From the IMG/VR virus record IMGVR_UViG_3300037261_000025, positions 1 to 50,988 of that record: a stretch of 50,988 bases of DNA. One strand, given 5' to 3'. A program made the position numbers and the translations under genes. Below the pieces are notes generated by a model. It made no database searches. It was not told the origin of the DNA and worked only from the letters and a program-made list of their open reading frames with translations. This document shows positions 1,326 to 47,346 of this stretch, piece by piece. This DNA comes from a virus. Lineage: Duplodnaviria > Caudoviricetes. Every line of letters starts with the position of its first letter. Within the stretch, counting starts at the first letter, position 1.

Positions 1326-1897
1326 ATCAGATCAAACACCGTTACACAGGCGAAGTCCTGTACGAATGCGAAGCGGGTTTAACGACTCGCCAGATGCTTG
1401 AGAAAGCAACTGCTGCTGGCGCGGACTTGCGTGGCGCGAACTTTTATGGCGCGAACTTGCGTGGCGCGAACTTGTATGGCGCGGACTTGCGTGGCGCGAA
1501 CTTGCGTGGCGCGGACTTGCGTGGCGCGAACTTTTATGGCGCGAACTTGCGTGGCGCGAACTTGTATGGCGCGGACTTGGGTGGCGCGGACTTGCGTGGC
1601 GCGAACTTGTATGGCGCGGACTTTTATGGCGCGAACTTGGGTGGCAAAGGAAAAGCAGTCGGCAGTCGGCCGTACTTCTCTATCGGTCCTATCGGCTCTC
1701 GCGCAGACACATTGGTTCTTTGGCTGACCGACAAAGGTCAGTACGTAAAAGCCGGGTGCTTTTTTGACACGCTGGAGAAGTTTGCAGAAGCTGTCGAAAA
1801 GACATATTGCGACAGTGACCACGGCAAAGAGTATCGAATGGCAATCCTGATGATGGAAGAGCACGCGGCTCTGTGGACACCGAAGGAGGAAGTATGA
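1322..1897 (+). CDS. Pentapeptide-repeat protein
   Basis: 15 x GA[DN][LF][RYG]; ATGA overlap and GAGGA RBS favour the start at 1322; C-terminal GSR..TL..AGCF domain. Confidence 0.9.
   Translation: MNQIKHRYTGEVLYECEAGLTTRQMLEKATAAGADLRGANFYGANLRGANLYGADLRGANLRGADLRGANFYGANLRGANLYGADLGGADLRGANLYGADFYGANLGGKGKAVGSRPYFSIGPIGSRADTLVLWLTDKGQYVKAGCFFDTLEKFAEAVEKTYCDSDHGKEYRMAILMMEEHAALWTPKEEV
1418..1642 (+). repeat. 15-nt coding tandem repeat
   Basis: GGCGCG(G/A)AC(TTG/TTT)(CGT/TAT/GGT) x15. Confidence 0.95.
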
Positions 1898-2175
1898 AAG
1901 ATTCCTCCAACATAGACCTTCCTGAGTGGATGGACAACTGGCCAGATGGTACGGTTAAGAGTTTTGATAATGCTTTTCTTGCTTACTTTGACGGACAGCC
2001 TTCGGTATTCGCTCCGAAAAAAGGCGAACAGTGCCCGATATCTTGCGCGATAAACGCACGGGAAACGCTCCAACGCAAGCGCACTACTGGCGAATTCGTC
2101 GATATCTCACTTCCTGGATCGTCACAAGCTGCAAAAGACAAGCACGCCATGCTCAACGGCAAGGGGTTCGCATGA
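1894..2175 (+). CDS. Hypothetical protein
   Basis: GGAGG RBS; ATGA overlaps at both ends. Confidence 0.7.
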   Translation: MKDSSNIDLPEWMDNWPDGTVKSFDNAFLAYFDGQPSVFAPKKGEQCPISCAINARETLQRKRTTGEFVDISLPGSSQAAKDKHAMLNGKGFA

Positions 2176-2390
2176 GACGTGGGAAAGCACCTCTAGGCGA
2201 GGCAAGCAGCTTCGCAAAACTCAGCAACGAGCAAGTGATGGACATTCGAAGCAAGCAGCGCCAGCGGCTGGCTATGCTCAAGTACATCCGCGAAAATCTG
2301 TCGCTTGAAGCTGTGGCAAAGCAGTACGACGTCGCACAATCAACGATAACTTGCATCAATTCTTACAGGACATGGGGGCATATTGAATGA
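2172..2390 (+). CDS. Small HTH DNA-binding protein (resembles the C-terminal HTH of phage HNH endonucleases)
   Basis: GE...AKLS..QV..IR ... VAKQYDVAQSTITCI...TW.H pattern; ATGA overlaps. Confidence 0.65.
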   Translation: MRRGKAPLGEASSFAKLSNEQVMDIRSKQRQRLAMLKYIRENLSLEAVAKQYDVAQSTITCINSYRTWGHIE

Positions 2391-4585
2391 ATCAAGACTA
2401 CGATAAGTTTGTGAATGGCAAGCGCAGATCTGAATTGGCGACAGGGCATCAACCAGGTGATCTGAACGAACATCTGTTCGACTTCCAGCATGCCATTACA
2501 TCATGGGCAATTCGGCGTGGGCGCTCGGCAATATTTGCTGATACCGGCCTTGGAAAAACTCTGATGCAACTATCATGGTCCGATGAGGTTGTTTCGCATA
2601 CGAACGGCATCGTTTTGATTCTTGCTCCATTGGCTGTATCAGAACAAACAATCGAACAGGGAAACACATTCGGAATTGAAGTAAAACGCGTTCCTCACGG
2701 AGAATCTCCATCATCGCCAGGAATCTGGATCACAAACTACGAGCGTATGGATGCGATTGATTTTGCAGAACTATCAGGTATCGTTCTTGATGAAAGCTCT
2801 ATCCTGAAATCTCACGATGGAAAGACTAGAACAAAGATCATCACGTCATGCCAGCAGGTCCAATATCGGCTTAGTTGCACAGCGACTCCATCTCCTAATG
2901 ATTTCGAGGAACTTGGAAATCAGTGCGAGTTCTTGGGAGTGATGACTCGTACAGAGATGCTGGCTACGTATTTTGTCAATGATACTGGCGATACCGGTAC
3001 ATGGCGACTGAAAGGATGGGGACAGTCCAGATTCTGGGAATGGATGGGATCATGGGCTGTGGTGCTTCGTAGTCCTGCGGATATTGGATTCGATGGATCA
3101 CGCTACGAACTTCCTGCGCTCCAGTATTTTGAGCATGTTGTCGACGTGGCCGGTCAAAGCGGCGATCTATTCGCAAAGCCAGCACTCACCATGCTGGAAC
3201 GTCGAAAGGCCCAGCGCGATAGTATTAAACAACGATGCGAGGCATTGGCAGAGATTGTGAACAGTGAACCAAATGAACCATGGCTTATCTGGTGCCACCT
3301 GAATGACGAGGCCGAATTGATAGAGTCGCTTGTCGCAGGGTCTGTGAACATCCAAGGATCTGATTCTGTCGAGTTCAAGACAAAAAACATGATGGCATTC
3401 AGTCATGGCGACTTACGTATCCTAGCCAGTAAACCAAAAATATGCGGGTACGGTATGAATTGGCAACACTGCGCAAGAATGGCATTCGTCGGACTTGATG
3501 ACTCGTTCGAGAAGTTCTACCAGGCCGTTCGTCGGTGCTATCGGTTTGGACAAAAGCGCAGTGTTCACGTCCTCGTTTTCACCGCAGAAAACGAGGGGCA
3601 AATACTTGCAAACTTGAAACGAAAAGAACTGCAACACCATGAAATGAGCGCAAATATGATTGAACACATGAAAGACATTATGAACAACGAACTGGCCGGA
3701 CAAACAAACGTGGTGGATGCATACAGAGAGGATACCCATACATCGAATAATTTCACAGTCCATCTTGGAGACTGCGTGAAATGGACTCGGCGCATGGAAT
3801 CGAACAGCATAGACTATTCCGTGTTTTCTCCACCTTTCGCCGACTTGTTCGTTTATTCAAACAGCGATCATGACATGGGAAACTGCAAAGACGATGCTGA
3901 GTTTGTCGCGCAACTTCGATTCTTGATCTCTGAGCTTTTCCGAGTCATCAAGCCAGGACGTAACGTCTCCTTCCATTGCATGAATCTTCCAACGACAAAG
4001 ATGCGCCAAGGGTTTATTGGATTGCGTGATTTCCGTGGAGACTTGATTCGTGCATTCCAAGATGCAGGATTTATCTATCACTCCGAAGTTGCTATCTGGA
4101 AAGACCCCGTAGTCGCAATGCAACGTACAAAGGCACTTGGTCTGCTGCATAAGACCATCCGCGAAAACAGCACCATGAGCCGTATGGGATTGCCTGATTA
4201 TGTTGTCACGATGCGCAAGCCTGGGGATTGCGAAGTTCGCGTTACTCATGGAGAAGATTTCCCGGTGGCATTGTGGCAAAAATATGCAAGCCCTATCTGG
4301 ACTGACATTAACCAGGGACGAACGCTCAACAAACTTCCTGCCAGGAACGAGAATGACGAGAAGCATATGTGCCCACTGCAGTTAGATGTTATCGAACGGT
4401 GCATCCATCTTTGGACAAACCCCGGTGATGTAATTTTCTCGCCTTTCACTGGCATCGGTAGCGAGGGATATTGTGCTGTGAAGATGGGGCGAAAGTTCGT
4501 TGGAACTGAACTAAAGCCGCAATATTGGGAGTTGGCATGCCAGAACATTGCTGACGCTGAGAATGAGCAAATTGGTCTTTTTTAA
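2387..4585 (+). CDS. SNF2-like helicase fused to a beta-class N4-C/N6-A DNA methyltransferase
   Basis: DTGLGKT, LDESS, CTATP and QAVRRCYRFGQ helicase motifs; then SPPF (motif IV) before PFTGIGSEG (motif I). Confidence 0.9.
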   Translation: MNQDYDKFVNGKRRSELATGHQPGDLNEHLFDFQHAITSWAIRRGRSAIFADTGLGKTLMQLSWSDEVVSHTNGIVLILAPLAVSEQTIEQGNTFGIEVKRVPHGESPSSPGIWITNYERMDAIDFAELSGIVLDESSILKSHDGKTRTKIITSCQQVQYRLSCTATPSPNDFEELGNQCEFLGVMTRTEMLATYFVNDTGDTGTWRLKGWGQSRFWEWMGSWAVVLRSPADIGFDGSRYELPALQYFEHVVDVAGQSGDLFAKPALTMLERRKAQRDSIKQRCEALAEIVNSEPNEPWLIWCHLNDEAELIESLVAGSVNIQGSDSVEFKTKNMMAFSHGDLRILASKPKICGYGMNWQHCARMAFVGLDDSFEKFYQAVRRCYRFGQKRSVHVLVFTAENEGQILANLKRKELQHHEMSANMIEHMKDIMNNELAGQTNVVDAYREDTHTSNNFTVHLGDCVKWTRRMESNSIDYSVFSPPFADLFVYSNSDHDMGNCKDDAEFVAQLRFLISELFRVIKPGRNVSFHCMNLPTTKMRQGFIGLRDFRGDLIRAFQDAGFIYHSEVAIWKDPVVAMQRTKALGLLHKTIRENSTMSRMGLPDYVVTMRKPGDCEVRVTHGEDFPVALWQKYASPIWTDINQGRTLNKLPARNENDEKHMCPLQLDVIERCIHLWTNPGDVIFSPFTGIGSEGYCAVKMGRKFVGTELKPQYWELACQNIADAENEQIGLF

Positions 4586-5581: not shown

Positions 5582-5624
5582 TGCTCACGCCGACGAGCCA
5601 GTGTCGGTATTTTTTGGGGATTTT

Positions 5625-8600
5625 ATGAGTGAAGTTGTCCTATTTGAAGATCAAAAAGAGGTGCTAGATAAAGTGCGTTCCGCGTTTATTGAGGGCCATA
5701 GGTCTGTGATGTTGTACGCGCCAACTGGCGCCGGAAAGTGCTTAGGACGCGATACACCTGTGATGATGGCAGACGGAACCATCAAGCCGGTGCAGGACAT
5801 CATAGCTGGTGAGTTTTTGATGGGCGACGATGGCGATCCGCGCTGTGTTATGAGCACAGCAACGGGAAGAGAAATGCTCTACCGCGTGACGCCACGAAAG
5901 GGTGATTCCTATGTGGTGAATGCGAGCCATCTTCTAAGTCTGCGTGTGACTCCAGGTAGCAACGGGATCCTTCTTGCTGATGGTATGCACATTAAGCGTG
6001 GTGAAGATGTTGTCTCTGTTCGTGCAGACGTATTCGCAAGAAGCAATAGAACCGCGAAGCATTGCCTAAAGGGCTGGAGATCGGATGCTATCCAAGCGTT
6101 CATGCGCGAGGATGATGGCGAGGACCGATTGATGCCGTCATATATTCTTGGTGCATGGCTTGGAGACGGAACCTTGGGCCACGCATCGATTACGAAGCCG
6201 CGCAGCAGGATGGTTGATGAGTGGGTTGCCTATGGTAGATCGATTGGTTACGGCGTCAGTATTGACGAGTGCGATGGTCGATGCCCCACATGGTTGTTGA
6301 CGAATGGATCTGACGGGTACGCATTCAACATCGCTCAATCGTCTCTTGGCGTCATCGGGGTCTTGCAGCGCAAGCACATACCTGACGCCTATAAGTATGG
6401 CCCGCTCTCTGATCGTCTGCAACTGCTGGCAGGTCTGATTGACAGCGATGGATCAGAATCGAATGGCGGATGCGACTGGATCAGTAAGAGCGAGGAGCTT
6501 GCCCGCGACTTCGCATTCGTCTGCCGTTCAGTGGGGCTGGCGTGCTACTTGACCTATGAGAAGAAGGGAATAAAGAGTACCGGATTTGTAGGTTGGTACT
6601 GGCGGGCGAGCGTGAGCGGAGACCTATCGATCATCCCGACGCGCGACAAGATATTCCCCGAACGTCGACAGATCAAGCGGCATCTTGTCCACGGGATCAC
6701 CGTCGAGCCAATGGGAGAGGGTGACTACTTCGGTTTCGAGATCGATGGTAATCGGCTGTTCTTGCTGGGTGACTTCACGGTAACGCACAACACCGAGATG
6801 GCAATTTCCATGCTCAAAGCAACGTCGGACAAGTACAAGCGCGGGGCAATGATGCTTGACCGCATTGTTCTTTGCAATCAGACAAGCGCGCGCCTGCAGA
6901 AGTACAACATCGATCACGGCGTCATGCAGTCAGGCCATTGGCGAAATCGACCCTATGAGCGCATCCAAGTGTGTAGTGCGCAGACTCTCGAAAAGCGCGG
7001 ATCGTTCCCAGGGCTTGACCTTTTGATTGTTGATGAGTGTTTTCCTGGTGAAACGTTAATTGACACAATTGACGGCGCGCGTCGAATAGACACACTAAAC
7101 GATGGCGGTCTCATATACAATGCAATAGGTACTGGAACAGTTCGTTCAATTTTCTCGAAAACGGTGTTTCAGACATTGCTTGTAAGGATGTCAAATGGCG
7201 ACTCATTTGAATGCACAGAGGATCATCCCGTGTTCACTGACTTGGGATGGCAACCCGCTGGCGCCATGGCGCGGGGTACGAAGCTATTTCGCGGTGAAAA
7301 CTTGCGAAGTCTGTGGAGAGGAGATTCGACCGCTTGTCATAAACTCGAAAACGGAGGGAGTGATACCGGAAGCGGAAACATTATTCAATGCGCGGAAATG
7401 TTGCGGGAAATCTTGCGCCAAGAAATTGAGCAACCCGATGCACAAGCCGGAATTGCGTATGAAAATGAAGGATACGCTTCTCCGAATTGGGCACAAGCCA
7501 TTGGTGCGCGGAGGCAATGGGAAGGGCATGACGGAGACCGAGACGCTTATGTTGAGCAAGTTGCCGGTGGGGTGGGGTCCAGGCCACATTTTCAAGACGT
7601 TGAGAAGTGCGGCTCAGGGGTATCCGCATCACTACAAATTGGATCTTGCGTTTCCTATCCAAAGGCTTTGTCTGGAGTTGGATGGCGGGAGTCATCGCTC
7701 GATTGCTCGGCAAGCGCAGGACGCGAAGAAGGATGCGCTGCTAAGAGAGTTTGGGTGGAAAGTGTGCAGACTCAAGAACACCCAAGCGGTAGAACTGTTT
7801 TCAACTTGCGAGTCAGTGGACACCCTTCGTATTTTGCAAATGGCTACCTAGTCCATAACTGCCACACCCAGCGACAGCAGACAACGGAGTTCATTCGGTC
7901 GAACGAAAGCATCAAAGTCATCGGCCTATCGGCTTCACCATTCGCCGACGGACTTGGAAAGACCTATACCAAGGTCGTATCGGCAACAACCACTGCAAAG
8001 TTGGTAGACCAAAAGCGACTCGTTCCTCTGCGCGTGTTTATCGCCAAGGAAATCGACATGGCTGGAGCGAAGAAAGTCGCTGGAGAATGGTCACAGGGCG
8101 AAGCGGCAGAGCGGGGCATGAAAATAACCGGCGATGTGGTGGCTGAGTGGGTGAAGAAAACGACCGAGATTTTCGGTGGACCTCGAAAGACGATTGTGTT
8201 TTGCTCGAATGTCGCCCACGGCGCTGATCTGGCGAATAAGTTCTCGGATGCCGGGTACAACTTCGTCGCGATCAGCTACAAGGATTCTGACGAGTTCAAG
8301 GTTGATGCCGTCGCTGATTTCTCAAAGCCTGATACGGCCATTCATGGTCTGATTGCATGCGACATCTTGACCAAGGGATTTGATGTGCCTGATGTCATGA
8401 TCGGAGTCAGCGCGCGTCCGTTCACCAAGTCATTCATGAGCCACGTCCAGCAAATGGGCCGGGTGATGCGCAGCTACCCAGAAAAGGAGTTCGCAATATG
8501 GCTTGACCACTCGGGGAACTATCTCCGGTTTCAAGAGGACTGGGACGAGCTATACCACGAAGGAGTCCATGAACTTTCTGACGGAAAAGAAAAGGCAAAG

Positions 8601-8975
8601 AAAGAAAAATCCGACAAAGAAAAGGAAGCGGCAAAGTGCCCTCGATGTCATGCGCTATGGGTCGGAAAGTCCGACAACTGCGTTGCATGCGGGTATGCCA
8701 GGCCGTTCACCAGCTTGATCGAAGCCGTACCGGGTGAGATGGAAGAACTCAAGGGTGCTCCGACGAAGGATGTGAAGCAGTCATGGTATTCGCAGCTTCG
8801 CACGCTTGCGGAGAACAGAGGATATTCGAATGGCTGGGTCGCGCACAAGTACCGTACCCGTTTTGGGGTGTGGCCCAAGGGCTTGCAGGAGGTTGCGCTG
8901 CCAGTTAGCATCGAGGTCGCACGATGGGAAACAAGCCAAAGAATTGCATGGGCTAAAGGTAAGAAATCAGTATGA
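5625..8975 (+). CDS. SF2 DEAD/DEAH helicase (RadD/YejH-like) containing two inteins; ~491 aa after splicing
   Basis: APTGAGK|T, IVDE|CH, GLSASP, LTKGFD, QQMGRVMR, C-terminal CxxC..CxxC and GW.AHKY...FG.WP. Confidence 0.92.
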   Translation: MSEVVLFEDQKEVLDKVRSAFIEGHRSVMLYAPTGAGKCLGRDTPVMMADGTIKPVQDIIAGEFLMGDDGDPRCVMSTATGREMLYRVTPRKGDSYVVNASHLLSLRVTPGSNGILLADGMHIKRGEDVVSVRADVFARSNRTAKHCLKGWRSDAIQAFMREDDGEDRLMPSYILGAWLGDGTLGHASITKPRSRMVDEWVAYGRSIGYGVSIDECDGRCPTWLLTNGSDGYAFNIAQSSLGVIGVLQRKHIPDAYKYGPLSDRLQLLAGLIDSDGSESNGGCDWISKSEELARDFAFVCRSVGLACYLTYEKKGIKSTGFVGWYWRASVSGDLSIIPTRDKIFPERRQIKRHLVHGITVEPMGEGDYFGFEIDGNRLFLLGDFTVTHNTEMAISMLKATSDKYKRGAMMLDRIVLCNQTSARLQKYNIDHGVMQSGHWRNRPYERIQVCSAQTLEKRGSFPGLDLLIVDECFPGETLIDTIDGARRIDTLNDGGLIYNAIGTGTVRSIFSKTVFQTLLVRMSNGDSFECTEDHPVFTDLGWQPAGAMARGTKLFRGENLRSLWRGDSTACHKLENGGSDTGSGNIIQCAEMLREILRQEIEQPDAQAGIAYENEGYASPNWAQAIGARRQWEGHDGDRDAYVEQVAGGVGSRPHFQDVEKCGSGVSASLQIGSCVSYPKALSGVGWRESSLDCSASAGREEGCAAKRVWVESVQTQEHPSGRTVFNLRVSGHPSYFANGYLVHNCHTQRQQTTEFIRSNESIKVIGLSASPFADGLGKTYTKVVSATTTAKLVDQKRLVPLRVFIAKEIDMAGAKKVAGEWSQGEAAERGMKITGDVVAEWVKKTTEIFGGPRKTIVFCSNVAHGADLANKFSDAGYNFVAISYKDSDEFKVDAVADFSKPDTAIHGLIACDILTKGFDVPDVMIGVSARPFTKSFMSHVQQMGRVMRSYPEKEFAIWLDHSGNYLRFQEDWDELYHEGVHELSDGKEKAKKEKSDKEKEAAKCPRCHALWVGKSDNCVACGYARPFTSLIEAVPGEMEELKGAPTKDVKQSWYSQLRTLAENRGYSNGWVAHKYRTRFGVWPKGLQEVALPVSIEVARWETSQRIAWAKGKKSV
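5739..6791 (+). mobile_element. Intein 1 (351 aa) with LAGLIDADG homing endonuclease, inserted in Walker A
   Basis: GK|CLGRDT...VNASHLLS...GDFTVTHN|T; ILGAWLGDG and LLAGLIDSDG motifs. Confidence 0.95.
7038..7859 (+). mobile_element. Intein 2 (274 aa) inserted in Walker B (DE|CH)
   Basis: DE|CFPGETLI...ECTEDHPVFT...VFNLRVSGHPSYFANGYLVHN|C; no in-frame endonuclease motifs. Confidence 0.93.
7195..7851 (+). CDS. DUF559/Vsr-like (PD-(D/E)xK) endonuclease overprinted in the +1 frame inside intein 2
   Basis: AAGGA RBS 6 nt before ATG; CEVC...CCGKSC, NPMHKPE.R.KM, YKLDLA...LELDGGSH...DAKKDALL...GWKVCRL. Confidence 0.8.
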   Translation: MATHLNAQRIIPCSLTWDGNPLAPWRGVRSYFAVKTCEVCGEEIRPLVINSKTEGVIPEAETLFNARKCCGKSCAKKLSNPMHKPELRMKMKDTLLRIGHKPLVRGGNGKGMTETETLMLSKLPVGWGPGHIFKTLRSAAQGYPHHYKLDLAFPIQRLCLELDGGSHRSIARQAQDAKKDALLREFGWKVCRLKNTQAVELFSTCESVDTLRILQMAT

Positions 8976-9685
8976 GTAACACCAATTGTCGATGCGGTAT
9001 TTATTCAATTGCTACGCCGAATGGCAGTACGTACATTGGCAGCAGCAACAAAATCGAGCGCCGATGGCACGAGCACCGGAGCCTGTTGCGCCACGGCAAG
9101 CACCATTCCACGAGGTTGCAGGCAGCTTGGGATAAGCATGGTGCGGCGCTTGTGTTTTCTGTATTGATGGAATGCCCGCTGGCTGAATTGAACGAGCGGG
9201 AGCATGAGTTTATTGATCGGCTTGGCGCTAAATTGAATACGTCCACATTCGTAGAAAACGTTTGGCTTAACGAAAGTACACGGGCGAAGTTCTCGGCTAT
9301 CCACCAATCCCCCGAATGGAAGGAATCCCGTAGACGCATTGCGACCGAATCTTCAACGCGCTGGGTAGCAGTCGAGTGCAGCAATGGGACTCAGTACAAG
9401 AACATGACGGATGCGGCACGCGCTTTTGGGGTTCGCGCTGCTGGCATCGCTCATCTTGTCAGGTCGCAGCGAGTTGGAAGGCTTGGCGTCCGCTTCAAAC
9501 TACAAACAGAGTGTTGGCGCGATGTGCCGACATGGCAGGATCAGCGCGTCATTACTATGCGCCAAAACGGCAACGACAAACGCACCGATCAATCTCGCGC
9601 GCGCATGAGCGCAGCGAAGAAGGGGCGCGCCGTCAGCCCCCAATGCCTTGCGGCCGCGACTGCTGCGAATCGGAAGACTGCATGA
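8972..9685 (+). CDS. Free-standing GIY-YIG homing endonuclease with NUMOD-like C-terminus
   Basis: CGIYSI...YIGSS..IERRW.EH..LL..GKH...LQAAWDKHG; ATGA overlaps at both ends. Confidence 0.9.
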   Translation: MSNTNCRCGIYSIATPNGSTYIGSSNKIERRWHEHRSLLRHGKHHSTRLQAAWDKHGAALVFSVLMECPLAELNEREHEFIDRLGAKLNTSTFVENVWLNESTRAKFSAIHQSPEWKESRRRIATESSTRWVAVECSNGTQYKNMTDAARAFGVRAAGIAHLVRSQRVGRLGVRFKLQTECWRDVPTWQDQRVITMRQNGNDKRTDQSRARMSAAKKGRAVSPQCLAAATAANRKTA

Positions 9686-10569: not shown

Positions 10570-10753
10570 CTTGAGTGGTGGGACATAGTTTAACCGCAGC
10601 ACTCAAGGAAGATCCCCTACTGTGAGGACAGACAAGGAAGAAGGGGTAAGGGTGGCGAAGGCAGCGCCCGATTGTCGAACGGCTACCGGGTCATGTAACG
10701 GCGAGAGGCATACATGTGAAGGACTTGGACCCAAGGATGGGCTAGGTCCGTCC
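10570..10753 (+). other. Multi-hairpin intergenic element (candidate structured RNA or replication origin)
   Basis: Consecutive stems cttgagtg/cactcaag, cccct/agggg, gggtg/cgccc, catgta/tacatg, ggatgggc/gtccgtcc. Confidence 0.45.
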
Positions 10754-10786
10754 AGCTCAAGGCATTTAGAAGTTAAGGGGAAGTTA

Positions 10787-11065
10787 ATGCAGTCTGGTGG
10801 AGATTGGGAAGAATTCGAGATTCAGAGATTTCTTCGGAGAAACGATAGATTTTTGAATGAGGGTTTACCCGAATTGCAGTCAGAAGCACTTGCGCAGACA
10901 ATGCTTTATCGTGACCGAGATGGCTCTGGCGATGACCGGCGAATTTGCATTGAGTGCAAGCATATCAAAGGATCATTGTGCAGGCATCCGAAATTAAAAA
11001 TTGTGAGCCCAGTGAGATTTATTCTGAAGCGGTGCGACGGATTTGAATTGATAGGCCAAAAATGA
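10787..11065 (+). CDS. Hypothetical Cys-rich protein
   Basis: AAGGGG RBS; RDR..DDRR.C.EC.H....C...RC.GF. Confidence 0.7.
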   Translation: MQSGGDWEEFEIQRFLRRNDRFLNEGLPELQSEALAQTMLYRDRDGSGDDRRICIECKHIKGSLCRHPKLKIVSPVRFILKRCDGFELIGQK

Positions 11066-11068
11066 AAA

Positions 11069-11227
11069 ATGGAATCAGTGAAAAAAGCGCACATCGCGCA
11101 CCTGATCCGGCTGCGTCAGGCGGACCCGGAATATGCCCGATACGCGCTCGCACAGACGCTGGCGATGGACATATGGCCGGACCTGGAAGAGTGCGTGCTG
11201 AGGGCTTGGAATGATCGAGAGAAGTAA
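11069..11227 (+). CDS. Hypothetical protein, 52 aa (not in the ORF track)
   Basis: MESVKKAHIAHLIRLRQADPEYARYAL...; its TAA lies in the R' box of attC-1. Confidence 0.65.
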   Translation: MESVKKAHIAHLIRLRQADPEYARYALAQTLAMDIWPDLEECVLRAWNDREK

Positions 11228-11293
11228 CGCCAAAAATCAGGGGGACTCCGGCGGCTTTATCGCCGGAGGCTCCCCTGGATTGCCGGGTTAGCC
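11222..11293 (-). other. attC-1 integron recombination site (72 bp)
   Basis: Minus strand: GGCTAAC-ccggc-AATCCAGG...CCTGATT-tttggc-GTTACTT; 5/6-nt spacers, extra C in L'', long imperfect hairpin. Confidence 0.85.
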
Positions 11294-11780
11294 CCGGCGC
11301 AACTACGGAGACGAACATGGAGCGATTGAAATACCCAATGAGCCATGAATGGCACGTTGCGATCAACCGGCACCACGACGGAAAGATGGGAACGCCCGAT
11401 TGGAAGCGCTGGATGTACGAAGCGAAAGCGATGGCCGACGAAGTGCCGCGCATGGCACTGGTGCTCGGCAGGGAGCGGCGCGGAGAACTCGCCAAGACGC
11501 ATAAGCAATGCTCGATGAATCCGGCGGTGCCGGTGCCAAGCAACCACCTGACGTGCTGCCTCGGCGTGAAGTGCGCGGAGTGCCCGGAACTGCTGGCGAT
11601 CGACAAGATTGAGCGGGTAACGCCCGAAGACATTGACACGGCGAAGGCATGGACGTGCGCGGCGCACATTGTTTCCAAGGGCGGCGACACGATGAACGAA
11701 GGCTACCTGCTCGACGTGAGCGACCGGATGTACTGGGACAACGTGTGCGAGAGCCTGAGCCAAGGTGATGAAGGGGCTAA
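11228..11780 (-). mobile_element. Gene cassette A (553 bp), gene inverted relative to attC
   Basis: Ends complementary over 9 nt (GTTAGCCCC 11287-11295 / GGGGCTAAC 11773-11781). Confidence 0.82.
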
Positions 11781-11787
11781 CGCTTGA
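11317..11787 (+). CDS. Cassette A cargo: Cys/His-rich hypothetical protein
   Basis: GGAG RBS; TCCLG.KC.ECP, WTC..H; stop codon lies inside attC-2. Confidence 0.8.
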   Translation: MERLKYPMSHEWHVAINRHHDGKMGTPDWKRWMYEAKAMADEVPRMALVLGRERRGELAKTHKQCSMNPAVPVPSNHLTCCLGVKCAECPELLAIDKIERVTPEDIDTAKAWTCAAHIVSKGGDTMNEGYLLDVSDRMYWDNVCESLSQGDEGANA

Positions 11788-11862
11788 ATTCAGCGACCGC
11801 GCTGAAAAATAAACTACAGCGTGCCACGCTTCGGCGCGGTTCGCTGGAATGACGGGTTAGCC
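11775..11862 (-). other. attC-2 integron recombination site (88 bp)
   Basis: Minus strand: GGCTAAC-ccgtc-ATTCCAGC-gaaccgcgc...gcgcggtc-GCTGAAT-tcaagc-GTTAGCC; extra C and extra A as in canonical attC. Confidence 0.9.
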
Positions 11863-12091
11863 GCTGCCCGCGAAACAGCGCGCAACACTTGGAGAACGTG
11901 AAATGAACTACTGTGAAGCCCTCGGCAAAATACGTGAAGCGCGAGCATTATTGCAAGACGAAGCTGCAACCCCGGCAAACACGCGGGAACTGGCTATGGC
12001 AATAACAAAGCTCGACGAAGCGATCCTCTGGCGGCAAAGCGACATGCAGAAAAAAGCGCCGGTCGTGGATGGCTGCTCCATAGGCGGCTAA
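11781..12091 (-). mobile_element. Gene cassette B (311 bp), gene inverted relative to attC
   Basis: Ends complementary over 9 nt (GTTAGCCGC 11856-11864 / GCGGCTAAC 12084-12092). Confidence 0.82.
11903..12091 (+). CDS. Cassette B cargo: Acb2/Tad1-like helical-hairpin protein (putative cyclic-nucleotide sponge)
   Basis: GGAG RBS; RELAMAITKLDEAILW resembles the RE..A.T.(L/V)EEA.(M/L)W pattern of Tad1-like proteins. Confidence 0.6.
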   Translation: MNYCEALGKIREARALLQDEAATPANTRELAMAITKLDEAILWRQSDMQKKAPVVDGCSIGG

Positions 12092-12142
12092 CGCAATGTC
12101 TAGCGCAACTGCGACATAACGTCGCCACGGCCAAGTTATAGA
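12089..12142 (-). other. attI-like cassette receptor site 1
   Basis: GTT crossover without an attC hairpin; gapless homology to 46503-46556. Confidence 0.65.
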
Positions 12143-12160
12143 TCAACTGGAGAATTTGAA

Positions 12161-12820
12161 ATGACCAAAGACATGATCGAACGCCTGCGCGATGGGTACG
12201 TATCGCGGGCCAAGCGATGGTCTGGTGATACCCACTCAGGGCTCGAAGGTGGCGAGGTTGACGTAGCAGCTACGGAATACCTGATGAAAGCAGCCGCCGA
12301 CGAACTCGAAGCCTCTGCCAAGCGCGAAGTGGCGCTGGCGGCTAGGGTTGCGGAGTTGGAACGTGAGTGCTATGCAACAACTAACACCATTGGACGCAAG
12401 GAAGTTGCCATCTTCACAAAGAAACACCACTCTACCTCGCAGCAGGAGCAAAACATGAGTAACGAAAAAGTGCTGATTGATCGGGCGCTGGTGGAGCAGG
12501 CAGTTGCGAGCATTTACGTAGCGTTTGGTGATTGCGCGCTGCTTAGAGGATTTAACGCCGAACTCGCTGCCAGTCCTGCTGCAACCAACGCCTTCAACCC
12601 AGAAGCCGAACGCACTGCTGCGTACAACGTCATTGCCGCTAGGGACAGACACATCGCAGAGCTTGAAGCCGAACTCGCGGCGGTCAGGAGTCAGGAGCCA
12701 ATTGGCTACGTCAGTGAAAACGATTGGAGTTGTGCATATCTGCATCATGACAATACACCAGGAAATCCCGTGTACGCAGCAGGCGGGGCACAGGAGAAGA
12801 AGTCACGCCCTCCGCTGTGA
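12161..12820 (+). CDS. Hypothetical protein (ead/ea22-like coiled-coil segments; possible internal start at 12455)
   Basis: GGAG RBS; ARVAELE and HIAELEAELAA..QEPIGYV; second CAGGAG-ATG at 12455. Confidence 0.65.
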   Translation: MTKDMIERLRDGYVSRAKRWSGDTHSGLEGGEVDVAATEYLMKAAADELEASAKREVALAARVAELERECYATTNTIGRKEVAIFTKKHHSTSQQEQNMSNEKVLIDRALVEQAVASIYVAFGDCALLRGFNAELAASPAATNAFNPEAERTAAYNVIAARDRHIAELEAELAAVRSQEPIGYVSENDWSCAYLHHDNTPGNPVYAAGGAQEKKSRPPL

Positions 12821-13015
12821 TTTCCTACGCTCAACTTCAAAATGGAGCGTCATTCTCCGCCGTTTCTCGTGATTCTCCACGGCAACTCTGATTCCGAGCG
12901 CCATGTTCCCGTCCCCTATTCGACGGGCATGGTAGGCGTGCCAAGCGCTAAGTCTCACTGAGAACGCATCCATTGCATCCATGTGTCGCTTCCTCCGTTC
13001 TTCTTGAATATCCAT
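12803..13015 (-). CDS. Hypothetical protein, 70 aa
   Basis: CAGGAGG RBS before MDIQEERRKRH. Confidence 0.65.
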   Translation of the reverse strand: MDIQEERRKRHMDAMDAFSVRLSAWHAYHARRIGDGNMALGIRVAVENHEKRRRMTLHFEVERRKSQRRA

Positions 13016-13123: not shown

Positions 13124-13816
13124 ATGGCAGACATCGTTACCGGCACCGTCACGGGCCAACTTGACACTACTGCACTCTTGCAAGCTGACGCTGACATTCG
13201 TCGTGAAGCTGCAATCTACACCGCCGACATCCGGCGCGAAACCGCTAAAGAAGCTTCGGACCTGACCGACACTGTGAAAACCGCAGGATGGGCAAACAGC
13301 GACCGCACCGGCACCGAAGCGGATCGCATCGTGGCGCAGGATACGGCGTATTTCATTGCGAATCAGTCGCAGACTTTCGCTAACGCGACCGCTCTGGCTG
13401 CTCTCAAAGCTGGTACCGACATGTCGTTCGCAAACACCATGGCGGCTATCGCTGCGTCGGCTCAAGCGGGCCAAGCCGCTACCGCCCTTGAAGGTGCCAA
13501 GAATGCTGCCGCTACGGCCCTGGGTCAAGCGCTGCTTACGCAGGCAGTTATGGGCGATGGGGCGACTACCCGCGCACTCATCAACACGCTGAAGATGGAA
13601 GACCTGAACCGCTCCTTGACCGAGCGCCATGCGGAGATCGTCGAACAACGTGGCGATGCTCGTCGCTATCAGGACGGGTTCAACAACAGTCAGGTGAACG
13701 CGCTGTCTTCGCAGATCAATGCGCTTCATAGCCAGTTCCAGCAAGCAACCCAAAAGACCGTGAACTTCGGTACCATGGGAGCGGCTACCACTTCCAACGC
13801 TAACAACGTGGCGTAA
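13124..13816 (+). CDS. Ala/Thr-rich coiled-coil hypothetical protein
   Basis: AAGGA RBS; MADIVTGTVTG...; codon usage looks like a highly expressed gene. Confidence 0.8.
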   Translation: MADIVTGTVTGQLDTTALLQADADIRREAAIYTADIRRETAKEASDLTDTVKTAGWANSDRTGTEADRIVAQDTAYFIANQSQTFANATALAALKAGTDMSFANTMAAIAASAQAGQAATALEGAKNAAATALGQALLTQAVMGDGATTRALINTLKMEDLNRSLTERHAEIVEQRGDARRYQDGFNNSQVNALSSQINALHSQFQQATQKTVNFGTMGAATTSNANNVA

Positions 13817-46197: not shown

Positions 46198-46484
46198 GGT
46201 ATACCCCTCAGCACTTTCAGCGACCGCAGCGCCGCATCAACTGAATCGACCATCGCCACGGGCAATCCCTTTGCTTCTTCGGCCTGCTTCGCGTTCATGC
46301 CTTTTCGGCCATAGCCTGTTTTCGCATTTTTTACCTCAAAATACATACACACCTCCGATTCGTTTGTTGCCCATACTTGCAGGTCATAGGGCTGGTGAAC
46401 CACCTTTACCCGTGCGCCAGCCTTTCGGAGTGCTTCAACGATGGTTTTTTGGTTTCCGTCAACCCTGCGGGCGTATCGTGTCAT
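46194..46484 (-). CDS. PD-(D/E)xK nuclease (VRR-NUC or resolvase-like)
   Basis: RVD.NQ..IV.ALR..GA.V...DL....EVK. Confidence 0.75.
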   Translation of the reverse strand: MTRYARRVDGNQKTIVEALRKAGARVKVVHQPYDLQVWATNESEVCMYFEVKNAKTGYGRKGMNAKQAEEAKGLPVAMVDSVDAALRSLKVLRGIP

Positions 46485-46499
46485 TTTTATTTTTCCATT

Positions 46500-46556
46500 C
46501 GCTCTATAACGTCTCCACAGACAAGTTATAGAGCGGTTGCGGTTTATATTGCGTTA
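46500..46556 (+). other. attI-like cassette receptor site 2
   Basis: cgctctataac-N14-gttatagagcg then GTTGCG...attgcG|TT; homologous to 12089-12142. Confidence 0.65.
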
Positions 46557-46976
46557 TGTGCGTTCCCACAGAATCGAGTTCCGTCCAAGCTGCACGGCCT
46601 TGGCGCATTGCACCTCGTCAAACTCGCCTATATGGGCTTCTCCCTTCCCGAGATTCATCAATACCGCGAGGTGTGAATACACCTCGTGTCTGCGTAGTCG
46701 GCCTTCGCGCCAGTAAGGGTCAATGGCCGCGTGTGCCGCTTGCTTCGCCGTTCTCAGTTGCGCGTTTGCCAGCCTACCGAGTGGTCTGGTGCCGTCGCCG
46801 TAGCCGTTGCCTGCTTTGTGGCATCCAACGTAAGCACCACATGGCACACAGCGCCAAAACCTCAAGGCTTCAAGGTCTGGGCGGTGCGGGTAAATGTCTG
46901 CGCCCGTTGCCAGTACCGCAGGCGTTCCGCAGTAGTGGCACATAACAGGTCGCTCAATCTGATTCACTTCGTTCAC
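46554..46976 (-). CDS. Cassette C cargo: zinc-finger protein (DUF3268-like)
   Basis: C.YCG...IYPHR.DL...C..C.AYVGCH...PLG.LAN..LR..K..AH...DP.W...HIG.FD...C. Confidence 0.8.
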   Translation of the reverse strand: MNEVNQIERPVMCHYCGTPAVLATGADIYPHRPDLEALRFWRCVPCGAYVGCHKAGNGYGDGTRPLGRLANAQLRTAKQAAHAAIDPYWREGRLRRHEVYSHLAVLMNLGKGEAHIGEFDEVQCAKAVQLGRNSILWERT

Positions 46977-46991
46977 AGCTTATCTCCAGCG
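46554..46991 (+). mobile_element. Gene cassette C (438 bp), gene inverted relative to attC
   Basis: GTTATGTGC 46553-46561 complementary to GCACATAAC 46938-46946. Confidence 0.75.
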
Positions 46992-46997
46992 TTAGAT
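46940..46997 (+). other. attC-3 (58 bp, partly degenerate)
   Basis: ACATAAC-aggtc-GCTCAATC-tgattcacttcgttcaca-GCTTATC-tccagc-GTTAGAT; two L-box mismatches. Confidence 0.7.
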
Positions 46998-47007
46998 CGC
47001 ATAATCT

Positions 47008-47346
47008 TCATGCCAAAATACAAATTCCCGCCAGCAGCACAATGCACACAGCGAAAGTCCCGATAGTCCAAGCTGAGTCTTTCCAGTGCCATGCTGTGTC
47101 CTCGTCCAACTCGTCATCCATCGTGATAGGCATCGGTGATTCGTCGCGGGTTGTAAGGTTTTGCTCCAGCTTCCAATGCTTTGATAGCTCTACACAAAGT
47201 TTCTGGCCAATCGGAGTTAGCGTATGCATCATGGGTGGCCTTGGCGCTTGCGTGCTGGATGCGTACTCTTCATCCGCGCAGCAGGTGCAGTCGCGGCCTT
47301 GCCGACAATTTCCTAGACATGGGCTATTAAACATGGGTTCTTCCAA
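47008..47346 (-). CDS. Hypothetical protein with C-terminal TM
   Basis: C.GNC.QGR.C; C-terminal hydrophobic helix; start uncertain. Confidence 0.6.
   Translation of the reverse strand: MEEPMFNSPCLGNCRQGRDCTCCADEEYASSTQAPRPPMMHTLTPIGQKLCVELSKHWKLEQNLTTRDESPMPITMDDELDEDTAWHWKDSAWTIGTFAVCIVLLAGICILA

Follow-up and report, generated by a model that had tools for sequence, protein, structure and literature searches.

A probable integrase-less integron array coded on the attC bottom strand in the early region of a 51-kb tailed phage

The virus record IMGVR_UViG_3300037261_000025 was analysed over its entire length of 50,988 bp (referred to below as the window; CheckV completeness 100). Genes are encoded on the + strand as far as ~14.1 kb, after which they switch to the minus strand. 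The element studied here, a probable array of two integron-type gene cassettes designated array 1, sits in the early-gene region of this 51-kb tailed phage, which has a SU10-type portal. Four + strand open reading frames (ORFs) lie within 11069-12820: a 52-aa ORF (11069-11227), ORF A (11317-11787, 156 aa), ORF B (11903-12091, 62 aa) and a 219-aa ORF (12161-12820). The gaps on either side of ORF A are filled by two imperfect hairpins, each placed between an ...AAC and a GTT... box (R''/R'). Hairpin 1 (11220-11295) has AGAAGTAAC as its 5' box and GTTAGCCCC as its 3' box, and hairpin 2 (11773-11864) reads GGGGCTAAC-GCTTGA-stem-GACGG-GTTAGCCGC on the + strand. Both have two extra bases on one arm, the 3' arm (T and G in hairpin 2), one after 3 bp and the other after a further 5-6 bp, as well as unpaired spacers 6 and 5 nt long. 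Folding as DNA gives -19.8 kcal/mol for hairpin 1 (z -3.04, matched by 1 of 200 shuffles) and -27.8 kcal/mol for hairpin 2 (z -5.76, matched by none of 200).

When read as cassettes, the locus divides into cassette A (11228-11780, + strand, 553 bp), composed of C, hairpin 1, GTTAGCCCC, a ribosome-binding site, ORF A and GGGGCTAA, and cassette B (11781-12091, + strand, 311 bp), composed of C, hairpin 2, GTTAGCCGC and ORF B and ending in GCGGCTAA. In the sense of the genes each cassette opens with C and the hairpin and closes with ...TAA, the crossover AA|C lying directly behind the TAA. The TAA of ORF B (12089-12091) is the last triplet of cassette B; the stop codon of ORF A, TGA (11785-11787), occupies nt 5-7 inside cassette B. 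The 52-aa ORF ends with a TAA (11225-11227, within AAGTAAC) that abuts the outer crossover AA|C, and the 5' box of hairpin 1 is a hybrid with the phage backbone. The 9-nt ends of each cassette are complementary at 9 of 9 positions (GTTAGCCCC / GGGGCTAA|C in cassette A, GTTAGCCGC / GCGGCTAA|C in cassette B), as expected if a circular cassette rebuilds one attC. On the minus strand the stretch reads attgcG|TTAGCCGC, ORF B in antisense, GCGGCTAAC and hairpin 2 ending GCTGAAT-TCAAGC-GTTAGCCCC, followed by ORF A in antisense, GGGGCTAAC, hairpin 1 and G|TTACTT; this agrees letter for letter with an initial annotation made from the sequence alone.

Two extrahelical bases mark the bottom strand of attC, the strand that integron integrases recombine. 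As a reference we used the attC of aadA1 from plasmid R100 (NC_002134, In2), read on the aadA1 coding strand. Its top strand, TGTCTAAC-AATTC-GTT[C]AAGCCG[A]CGCCGC-loop-GCGGCGCGGCTTAAC-TCAAGC-GTTAGAT, has a 5-nt and then a 6-nt spacer, with an extra C and an extra A on the 5' arm, 3 bp / 6 bp apart. The + strand of the window is the mirror image of this arrangement, with a 6-nt spacer (GCTTGA in hairpin 2), the stem, a 5-nt spacer and GTT, and therefore corresponds to the attC bottom strand. Compared with the bottom strand of the aadA1 site, hairpin 2 has equal spacer lengths and equal positions of the extra bases. The likeness to aadA1/R100 thus extends over the AAC/GTT boxes, the unpaired spacers of 5 and 6 nt, the extra G and T of the bottom strand 5-6 bp apart, the complementary cassette ends and a stop codon inside or beside the box.

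A strict geometry scanner, requiring a stem and two bulges, found the aadA1 attC on the strand opposite aadA1 and hairpins 1 and 2 on the + strand of the window. Over 359,537 bases comprising the window and related loci, it returned 100 sites on the ORF A-sense strand versus 8 poor ones on the other strand. A looser scan for AAC...GTT, ranked by folding energy, recovered hairpin 2 only, among much noise. We then built a covariance model, R1, from 31 scanner sites of other loci (alignment A4), none of them from the window, R100 or phage TJE1. In this alignment 95.5% of the cells are paired, a percentage that is partly circular as the scanner had demanded the stem and two bulges; two-sided changes occur in 12 of 13 stem pairs, and the covariation score is 0.544 compared with 0.134 after shuffling, a score that none of 500 shuffles equalled. 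A search with R1 of 150,207 bases, made up of the window, R100 and TJE1, gave seven matches at E<=1. The top match was the R100 aadA1 attC (13473-13536, +, 69.5 bits), followed by hairpin 2 of the window (11773-11864, +, 59.3 bits, E 9e-11), a TJE1 site (1014-1077, -, 43.3 bits), hairpin 1 of the window (11220-11295, +, 43.0 bits, E 4e-7), a second TJE1 site (242-295, -, 36.8 bits), a third site in the window (46938-46999, -, 32.5 bits, E 9e-5) and a third TJE1 site (1460-1521, -, 28.5 bits). The integrase-less attC cluster (CALIN) of TJE1 has been described with three attC sites, and according to that account five of six phage attC sites tested recombined with attI1 under IntI1, two TJE1 sites being among those tested (PMC9892861). 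Together, model R1 and the aadA1 comparison bear out the initial annotation in treating both units as integron-type cassettes with attC sites (attC-1 and attC-2, corresponding to hairpins 1 and 2), in placing the attC top strand on the minus strand of the window and in assigning both extrahelical bases to attC-2.

A six-frame search of the whole record with PF00589 and TIGR02249 gave no match at E<=1. Since the phage has no tyrosine recombinase, array 1 is classified as a CALIN: two R1 matches lie 478 nt apart in a genome that lacks an integrase, and no intI stands beside the array as it would in a complete integron. CALINs in phage genomes have already been published (Qi et al. 2023, Front Microbiol, PMC9892861), and array 1 resembles those described there in having small ORFs enclosed by at least two attC sites, in the lack of intI in the phage and in its link to DNA methyltransferase cargo, which is found here in related arrays. 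We consider it likely, with a probability of roughly 80%, that 11228-12091 is a two-cassette integrase-less integron array. We infer that a host integrase acting in trans loaded it.

The model was also applied to 77 of 87 ORF A loci, with ten apparent duplicates omitted (L003, L011, L024, L035, L041, L042, L057, L064, L066 and L072). It gave 127 matches at E<=0.001 within 33 of the 77 loci, 31 of the matches being the training sites, and all 127 retain the extrahelical bases and the spacer lengths. Among 90 distinct attC-like sites, 18, mostly long ones, contain a start codon and a Shine-Dalgarno word inside the hairpin loop. Such sites include those of L018, L021, L026, L030, L036, L038, L054, L075 and L088; the putative ORFs starting there read through the 3' arm and the GTT box and have similar N-terminal peptides (e.g. 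...TPA.VGS..GLG...). The loop word GCTTTAT(C) is common to hairpin 1 of the window (11253-11260) and to the otherwise unrelated hairpins of L010 and L005.

In order to follow the cassette ends, ORF A loci were compared (7 viral and 80 metagenomic). ORF A is preceded by a GTT box and closed by an AAC box; the two boxes are complementary to each other, and among homologous loci they co-vary, as in the pairs GTTAGCCCC/GGGGCTAAC, GTTATACCC/GGGTATAAC, GTTAGCCCT/AGGGCTAAC, GTTAGACAT/AGGTCTAAC and GTTAGGCCT/GGGCCTAAC. Over 32 distinct loci the mean complementarity of the ends is 7.31 of 9, compared with 6.37 when partners are shuffled, and none of 5000 shuffles came up to it; the observed figure is lowered by a mis-picked AAC box in L010, L005 and L003. 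We also examined where homology ends by comparing the window with L010, L002, L004 and L005, whose ORF A proteins are 81-94% identical to that of the window. Identity in 20-nt bins is 65-100% from about 11290-11330 to 11789 and falls to background (0-60%, with one bin at 80%) past 11790 and before about 11290. The right edge of homology is thus the AAC box of hairpin 2, at the predicted crossover 11780|11781, and on the left homology starts at the GTT box of hairpin 1, near 11287. The initial annotation had offered as a check that its reading would fall if homologous genes lacked attC flanks and homology ended elsewhere than at the crossover points. ORF A homologues do have attC flanks, and the reading survives this check; its predicted boundaries held on the right, at the AAC box (11781), and failed on the left, where homology ends at the GTT box and not at 11227|11228.

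In the usual, though not obligatory, cassette the ORF lies on the attC top strand and is followed by its attC. Array genes in the window are instead on the attC bottom strand and each is preceded by its attC, which applies to all three R1 matches, and 127 of 127 R1 matches in the 77 related loci are on the ORF A-sense strand. In R100 and TJE1 the genes are on the strand opposite the R1 matches, the reverse of the window; in TJE1, as in classical cassettes, the bottom strand of the sites runs antisense to the genes, whereas in the window it is the coding strand. Simple counts did not decide which strand is coding. The longest ORF per strand gave 38 versus 24, an indecisive result because GC-rich antisense frames stay open, and ORFs ending on the box TAA numbered 33 of 68 versus 31 of 67, which is likewise indecisive. 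The decisive test was a Pfam search with the longest ORFs from cassettes other than those of ORF A: 43 ORFs in the sense of the model yielded 10 families, compared with none from 34 ORFs of the other strand. The cargo in the sense of the model comprises DNA methylases (N6_N4_Mtase three times, C-5 DNA methylase and MT-A70), phosphoesterase domains (DHHA1 twice and DHH) and DUF7448, DUF2528, a zinc ribbon, Acb2_Tad1_hairpin and UPF0020. This result indicates that the arrays around ORF A, including that of the window, are coded on the attC bottom strand. The cassette ORFs of L005 (4508-6869) belong to the DNA methylase and DHH/DHHA1 cargo set of the related arrays. No mention of such polarity was found in the searched part of PMC9892861, the supplements lying outside that search. 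The polarity is relevant to the origin and expression of cassettes and to the ease with which attC folds.

A link to a true integron was provided by genome contigs, among which a scan found ORF A at only 9 loci, all in metagenome-assembled genomes (MAGs). In one of these, L226 from a Pseudomonadales MAG, the 8.5-kb contig that carries ORF A also encodes, in the same orientation, an IntI (415.1 bits, cut-off 265; region 1440-3700). The ATG of IntI lies 46 nt past the TAA|C of ORF A, and R1 matches lie upstream of ORF A on ORF A's strand. L226 holds a complete integron in which an ORF A cassette neighbours a true intI. Relative to attC polarity its integrase is placed as in R100, and what is reversed is the cassette gene. 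Neighbouring cassette ORFs in L226 appear to be on the IntI strand too. As a control, L236 from a Candidatus Accumulibacter MAG has the classical order of attC, first-cassette ORF on the other strand, GCCTAAC and intI. A tyrosine recombinase in L005 (7241-8455) was considered as an integron integrase and rejected; it has no TIGR02249 match and is an ordinary phage integrase.

The third R1 match of the window belongs to a second array, a single cassette on the other genome arm (46554-46991, minus strand), consisting of the attC at 46938-46999 and a 140-aa ORF (46554-46976) with a DUF3268 zinc finger (E 1e-29; phrog_1934). The ends of this cassette, GTTATGTGC / GCACATAAC, are complementary at 9 of 9 positions, and its attC is decayed, with no fold (z 0.02). 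Both arrays are followed by a 75-nt element, which in each case starts exactly at the array-ending TAA|C and runs to the ATG of the next gene. Copy 1 (12089-12163, +) leads to gene 12161-12820, and copy 2 (46482-46556, -) directly follows the third cassette, folds with a z of -3.48 and holds the perfect inverted repeat GCTCTATAAC / GTTATAGAGC. The two copies are identical in 51 of 75 ungapped columns (alignment A5). There is no third copy in the genome, and a 14-base pattern found at least 118 stretches in viral contigs, none of which was related after filtering. A decayed attC, with the next gene as a cassette, was also considered for the 75-nt element and rejected, as neither downstream gene ends in a CTATAAC box and the element gives no R1 match at E<=1. 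At both arrays the element occupies the attI position relative to attC polarity, and it may serve as an attI-like landing pad or as a phage promoter. A classical integron differs in having intI and an attI, for which the phage offers the 75-nt element as a candidate. IntI has been reported to insert cassettes at minimal 5'-GWT-3' genome sites (attG) at a near-canonical frequency (bioRxiv 10.1101/2022.09.11.507474). The phage arrays are like such insertions in having cassettes outside an integron platform and at a bare GTT/AAC triplet, and by this analogy attG-type insertion would be the simplest route for a host integrase to load the phage genome. Unlike attG insertions, both phage arrays abut one 75-nt element at the same nucleotide, which suggests a preferred landing site and not a random GWT.

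ORF A encodes a conserved Cys-rich protein with invariant Cys/His columns and 475 homologues at E<=0.001. It matches neither Pfam nor PHROG, and its AlphaFold model (pLDDT, the predicted local distance difference test, 77.6) has no fold match in the PDB at E<=0.001. The relatives differ in their C-terminal tails along with the neighbouring cassette. One subfamily, including the window (11773-11787), L001, L004, L005 and L010, has a frame that skips the box TAA and stops in the next cassette, so that in this subfamily the tail depends on the neighbour and the length ranges from 150 to at least 172 aa.

ORF B resembles Tad1/Acb2 (PF24729; PDB 7uav and 8kbb among others) in its predicted two-helix hairpin (pLDDT 82.5) and in the motif SRE..T..eA..W. 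It matches PF24729 at E 1.4e-4 with 22.4 bits, under the gathering cut-off of 27, and 12 of 20 members of its family match at E<=0.01. When the PDB was searched with a profile of the family, every match was a Tad1 chain (E 0.15-0.32), including one whose entry bears a different name. In Foldseek, among the matches listed, all ranks through 20 are Tad1, with a root mean square deviation of ~1 A over 44 columns, 27-36% identity and E ~0.2. Unlike ORF B with its 62 aa, the solved Tad1 chains have 115-138 aa, and all the scores are below significance or gathering thresholds. ORF B may be proposed, tentatively, as a candidate counter-defence protein of the Tad1/Acb2 type.

The initial annotation had further suggested that the AAC/GTT core doubles as a stop codon so that insertions never disrupt the upstream gene. 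Its first part stands, as the outer crossover G|TT (AA|C on the other strand) does fall on the TAA of ORF 11069-11227. The second part is overstated: the stop codon of ORF A lies beyond the junction, and shuffling changes the end of the gene, so that tails differ. Nor is insertion at a stop codon a rule, since the insertion point of the second array is 14 nt past the TGA of the upstream ORF 47008-47346 and hence off any stop codon. ORF 11069-11227 has no homologue but itself among 5.8 billion proteins and is therefore only a putative gene; it also lacks a Pfam or PHROG match. A bottom-strand cassette whose ORF ends in the box always ends in TAA|C, which is a by-product of the AAC core, and the same by-product occurs in top-strand cassettes whose stop lies in R''. 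The proposal that cassette B is the latest arrival is not supported, because the phage has no intI and insertion by attC x attC would give the opposite order.

Several results weigh against the reading of array 1 as a CALIN loaded by a host integrase, in addition to the partial circularity of alignment A4. If crossover occurred only at AA|C, hairpin 1 should travel with ORF A, and yet the window has neither hairpin in common with L010, L002, L004 and L005. Among 209 locus pairs with at least 75% ORF identity, the upstream hairpin is common to 10 and the downstream hairpin to 2, and neither is common to 197. Of the 77 loci with ORF A, 44 lack an R1 site at E<=0.001; ORF A therefore occurs outside cassettes too, as an ordinary phage gene. 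At the 15 viral loci that encode distant relatives of ORF B, no attC-like site reaches E<=0.01, and the functional assignment of ORF B draws only on sub-threshold scores. Finally, an empty site or a near relative of the phage was looked for by DNA and protein searches and none was found. A search of GenBank phage DNA with 10600-12900 gave one weak 114-nt match only, the ORF A protein had no match in GenBank phages, and the neighbouring 219-aa ORF had no relative among viral contigs. A search with a primase-like gene yielded one distant locus, L008, with other gene content and no attC-like site.

That neither hairpin is common to most locus pairs lends weight to an alternative in which the attC-derived sites are now mainly short linkers, at whose boxes the homologous recombination of the phage swaps ORFs without any integron integrase. 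Homology to the closest ORF A loci extends only from the GTT box to the AAC box, with both hairpins replaced; the boxes and adjoining spacers (GACGG-GTTAGCC, CTAAC-GC) recur in many sites, and a YqaJ-type exonuclease domain is encoded in the genome (47400-49124). Exchange confined to the boxes would, however, leave the co-varying complementarity of left and right boxes unexplained, as well as the extrahelical bases and spacer lengths kept across the 127 sites, and an intact IntI adjoins such a cassette in L226. We regard this alternative as improbable. Nevertheless, bottom-strand crossovers alone do not account for how often hairpins are replaced, and events on the top strand or homologous exchange within the boxes may be involved. 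The 10:2 upstream bias and the start codons in loops fit a unit composed of the hairpin and the ORF.

Start codons and ribosome-binding sites in 18 of 90 loops are also what would be expected of RNA-level elements, such as terminators, RNase III sites or translational control signals, that had become attC-like by convergence. The hairpins are on the transcribed sense strand between genes, and attC sites are thought to hold weak terminators, as noted in PMC9892861. This explanation is very unlikely in our judgement, since R1 ranks a textbook attC first and also finds the three TJE1 sites, no T run follows the stems, the boxes pair cassette-wise and not hairpin-wise, and L226 links a cassette of this type to IntI. 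The idea that the inverted repeats arose by chance in GC-rich intergenic DNA can be given almost no credence. GGCTAAC, of which 4 of the window's 6 copies lie within 11287-12092, is not over-represented genome-wide (6 versus 3.2 expected; 8 of 100 shuffles reach 6), which is in line with chance. Against this stand the fold z-scores of -3.04 and -5.76, the R1 E-values of 9e-11 and 4e-7 and the same architecture flanking ORF A homologues in 33 of 77 other loci, which refute chance as the explanation.

Other features of the genome were identified by domain search. A 732-aa fusion (2387-4585, +) joins a SNF2/DEAD-type helicase to an N6/N4 DNA methylase domain. A 1124-aa helicase (ResIII / Helicase_C; 5601-8975, +) is split by Hint and homing-endonuclease-associated Hint domains, an insertion that is probably an intein, and a GIY-YIG ORF (8972-9685) lies directly behind it. 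The SU10-type portal, the Hint-containing helicase, the SNF2-methylase fusion and the YqaJ exonuclease were all recognized in this way, and the phage also encodes a Toprim protein.

If array 1 is a CALIN loaded by a host integrase, an integron integrase of the host would have inserted the cassettes in trans at the GTT/AAC site that ends ORF 11069-11227, and the same enzyme could excise or exchange them. Read-through transcription of the cassettes would be supplied by phage promoters. The cargo would be accessory, ORF A being a widespread Cys-rich phage protein and ORF B a Tad1/Acb2-hairpin-like candidate for counter-defence. More speculatively, and with considerable doubt, the arrays might represent a separate, phage-adapted cassette pool, with bottom-strand genes read towards the integrase side, that shuttles between integrase-less phages and integrons of the same polarity such as L226. 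Such a pool would carry accessory or counter-defence cargo (DNA methyltransferases, Tad1/Acb2-like hairpins and DHH phosphoesterases), and the conserved 75-nt attI-like landing pad at two places in the genome would allow this phage to borrow the integrase of its host. A phage CALIN is of a kind already known. Our full-text literature searches found no account of phage-associated arrays coded on the attC bottom strand, of a shared landing element or of Tad1/Acb2-like cargo in cassettes.

Integron cassettes have recently been reported to store bacterial anti-phage defence systems. If phages keep accessory, and possibly counter-defence, genes as cassettes, both sides would use one recombination currency, and a host integrase could reshuffle phage genomes during infection. 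The DNA between such sites also offers a way to look for unknown phage accessory genes.

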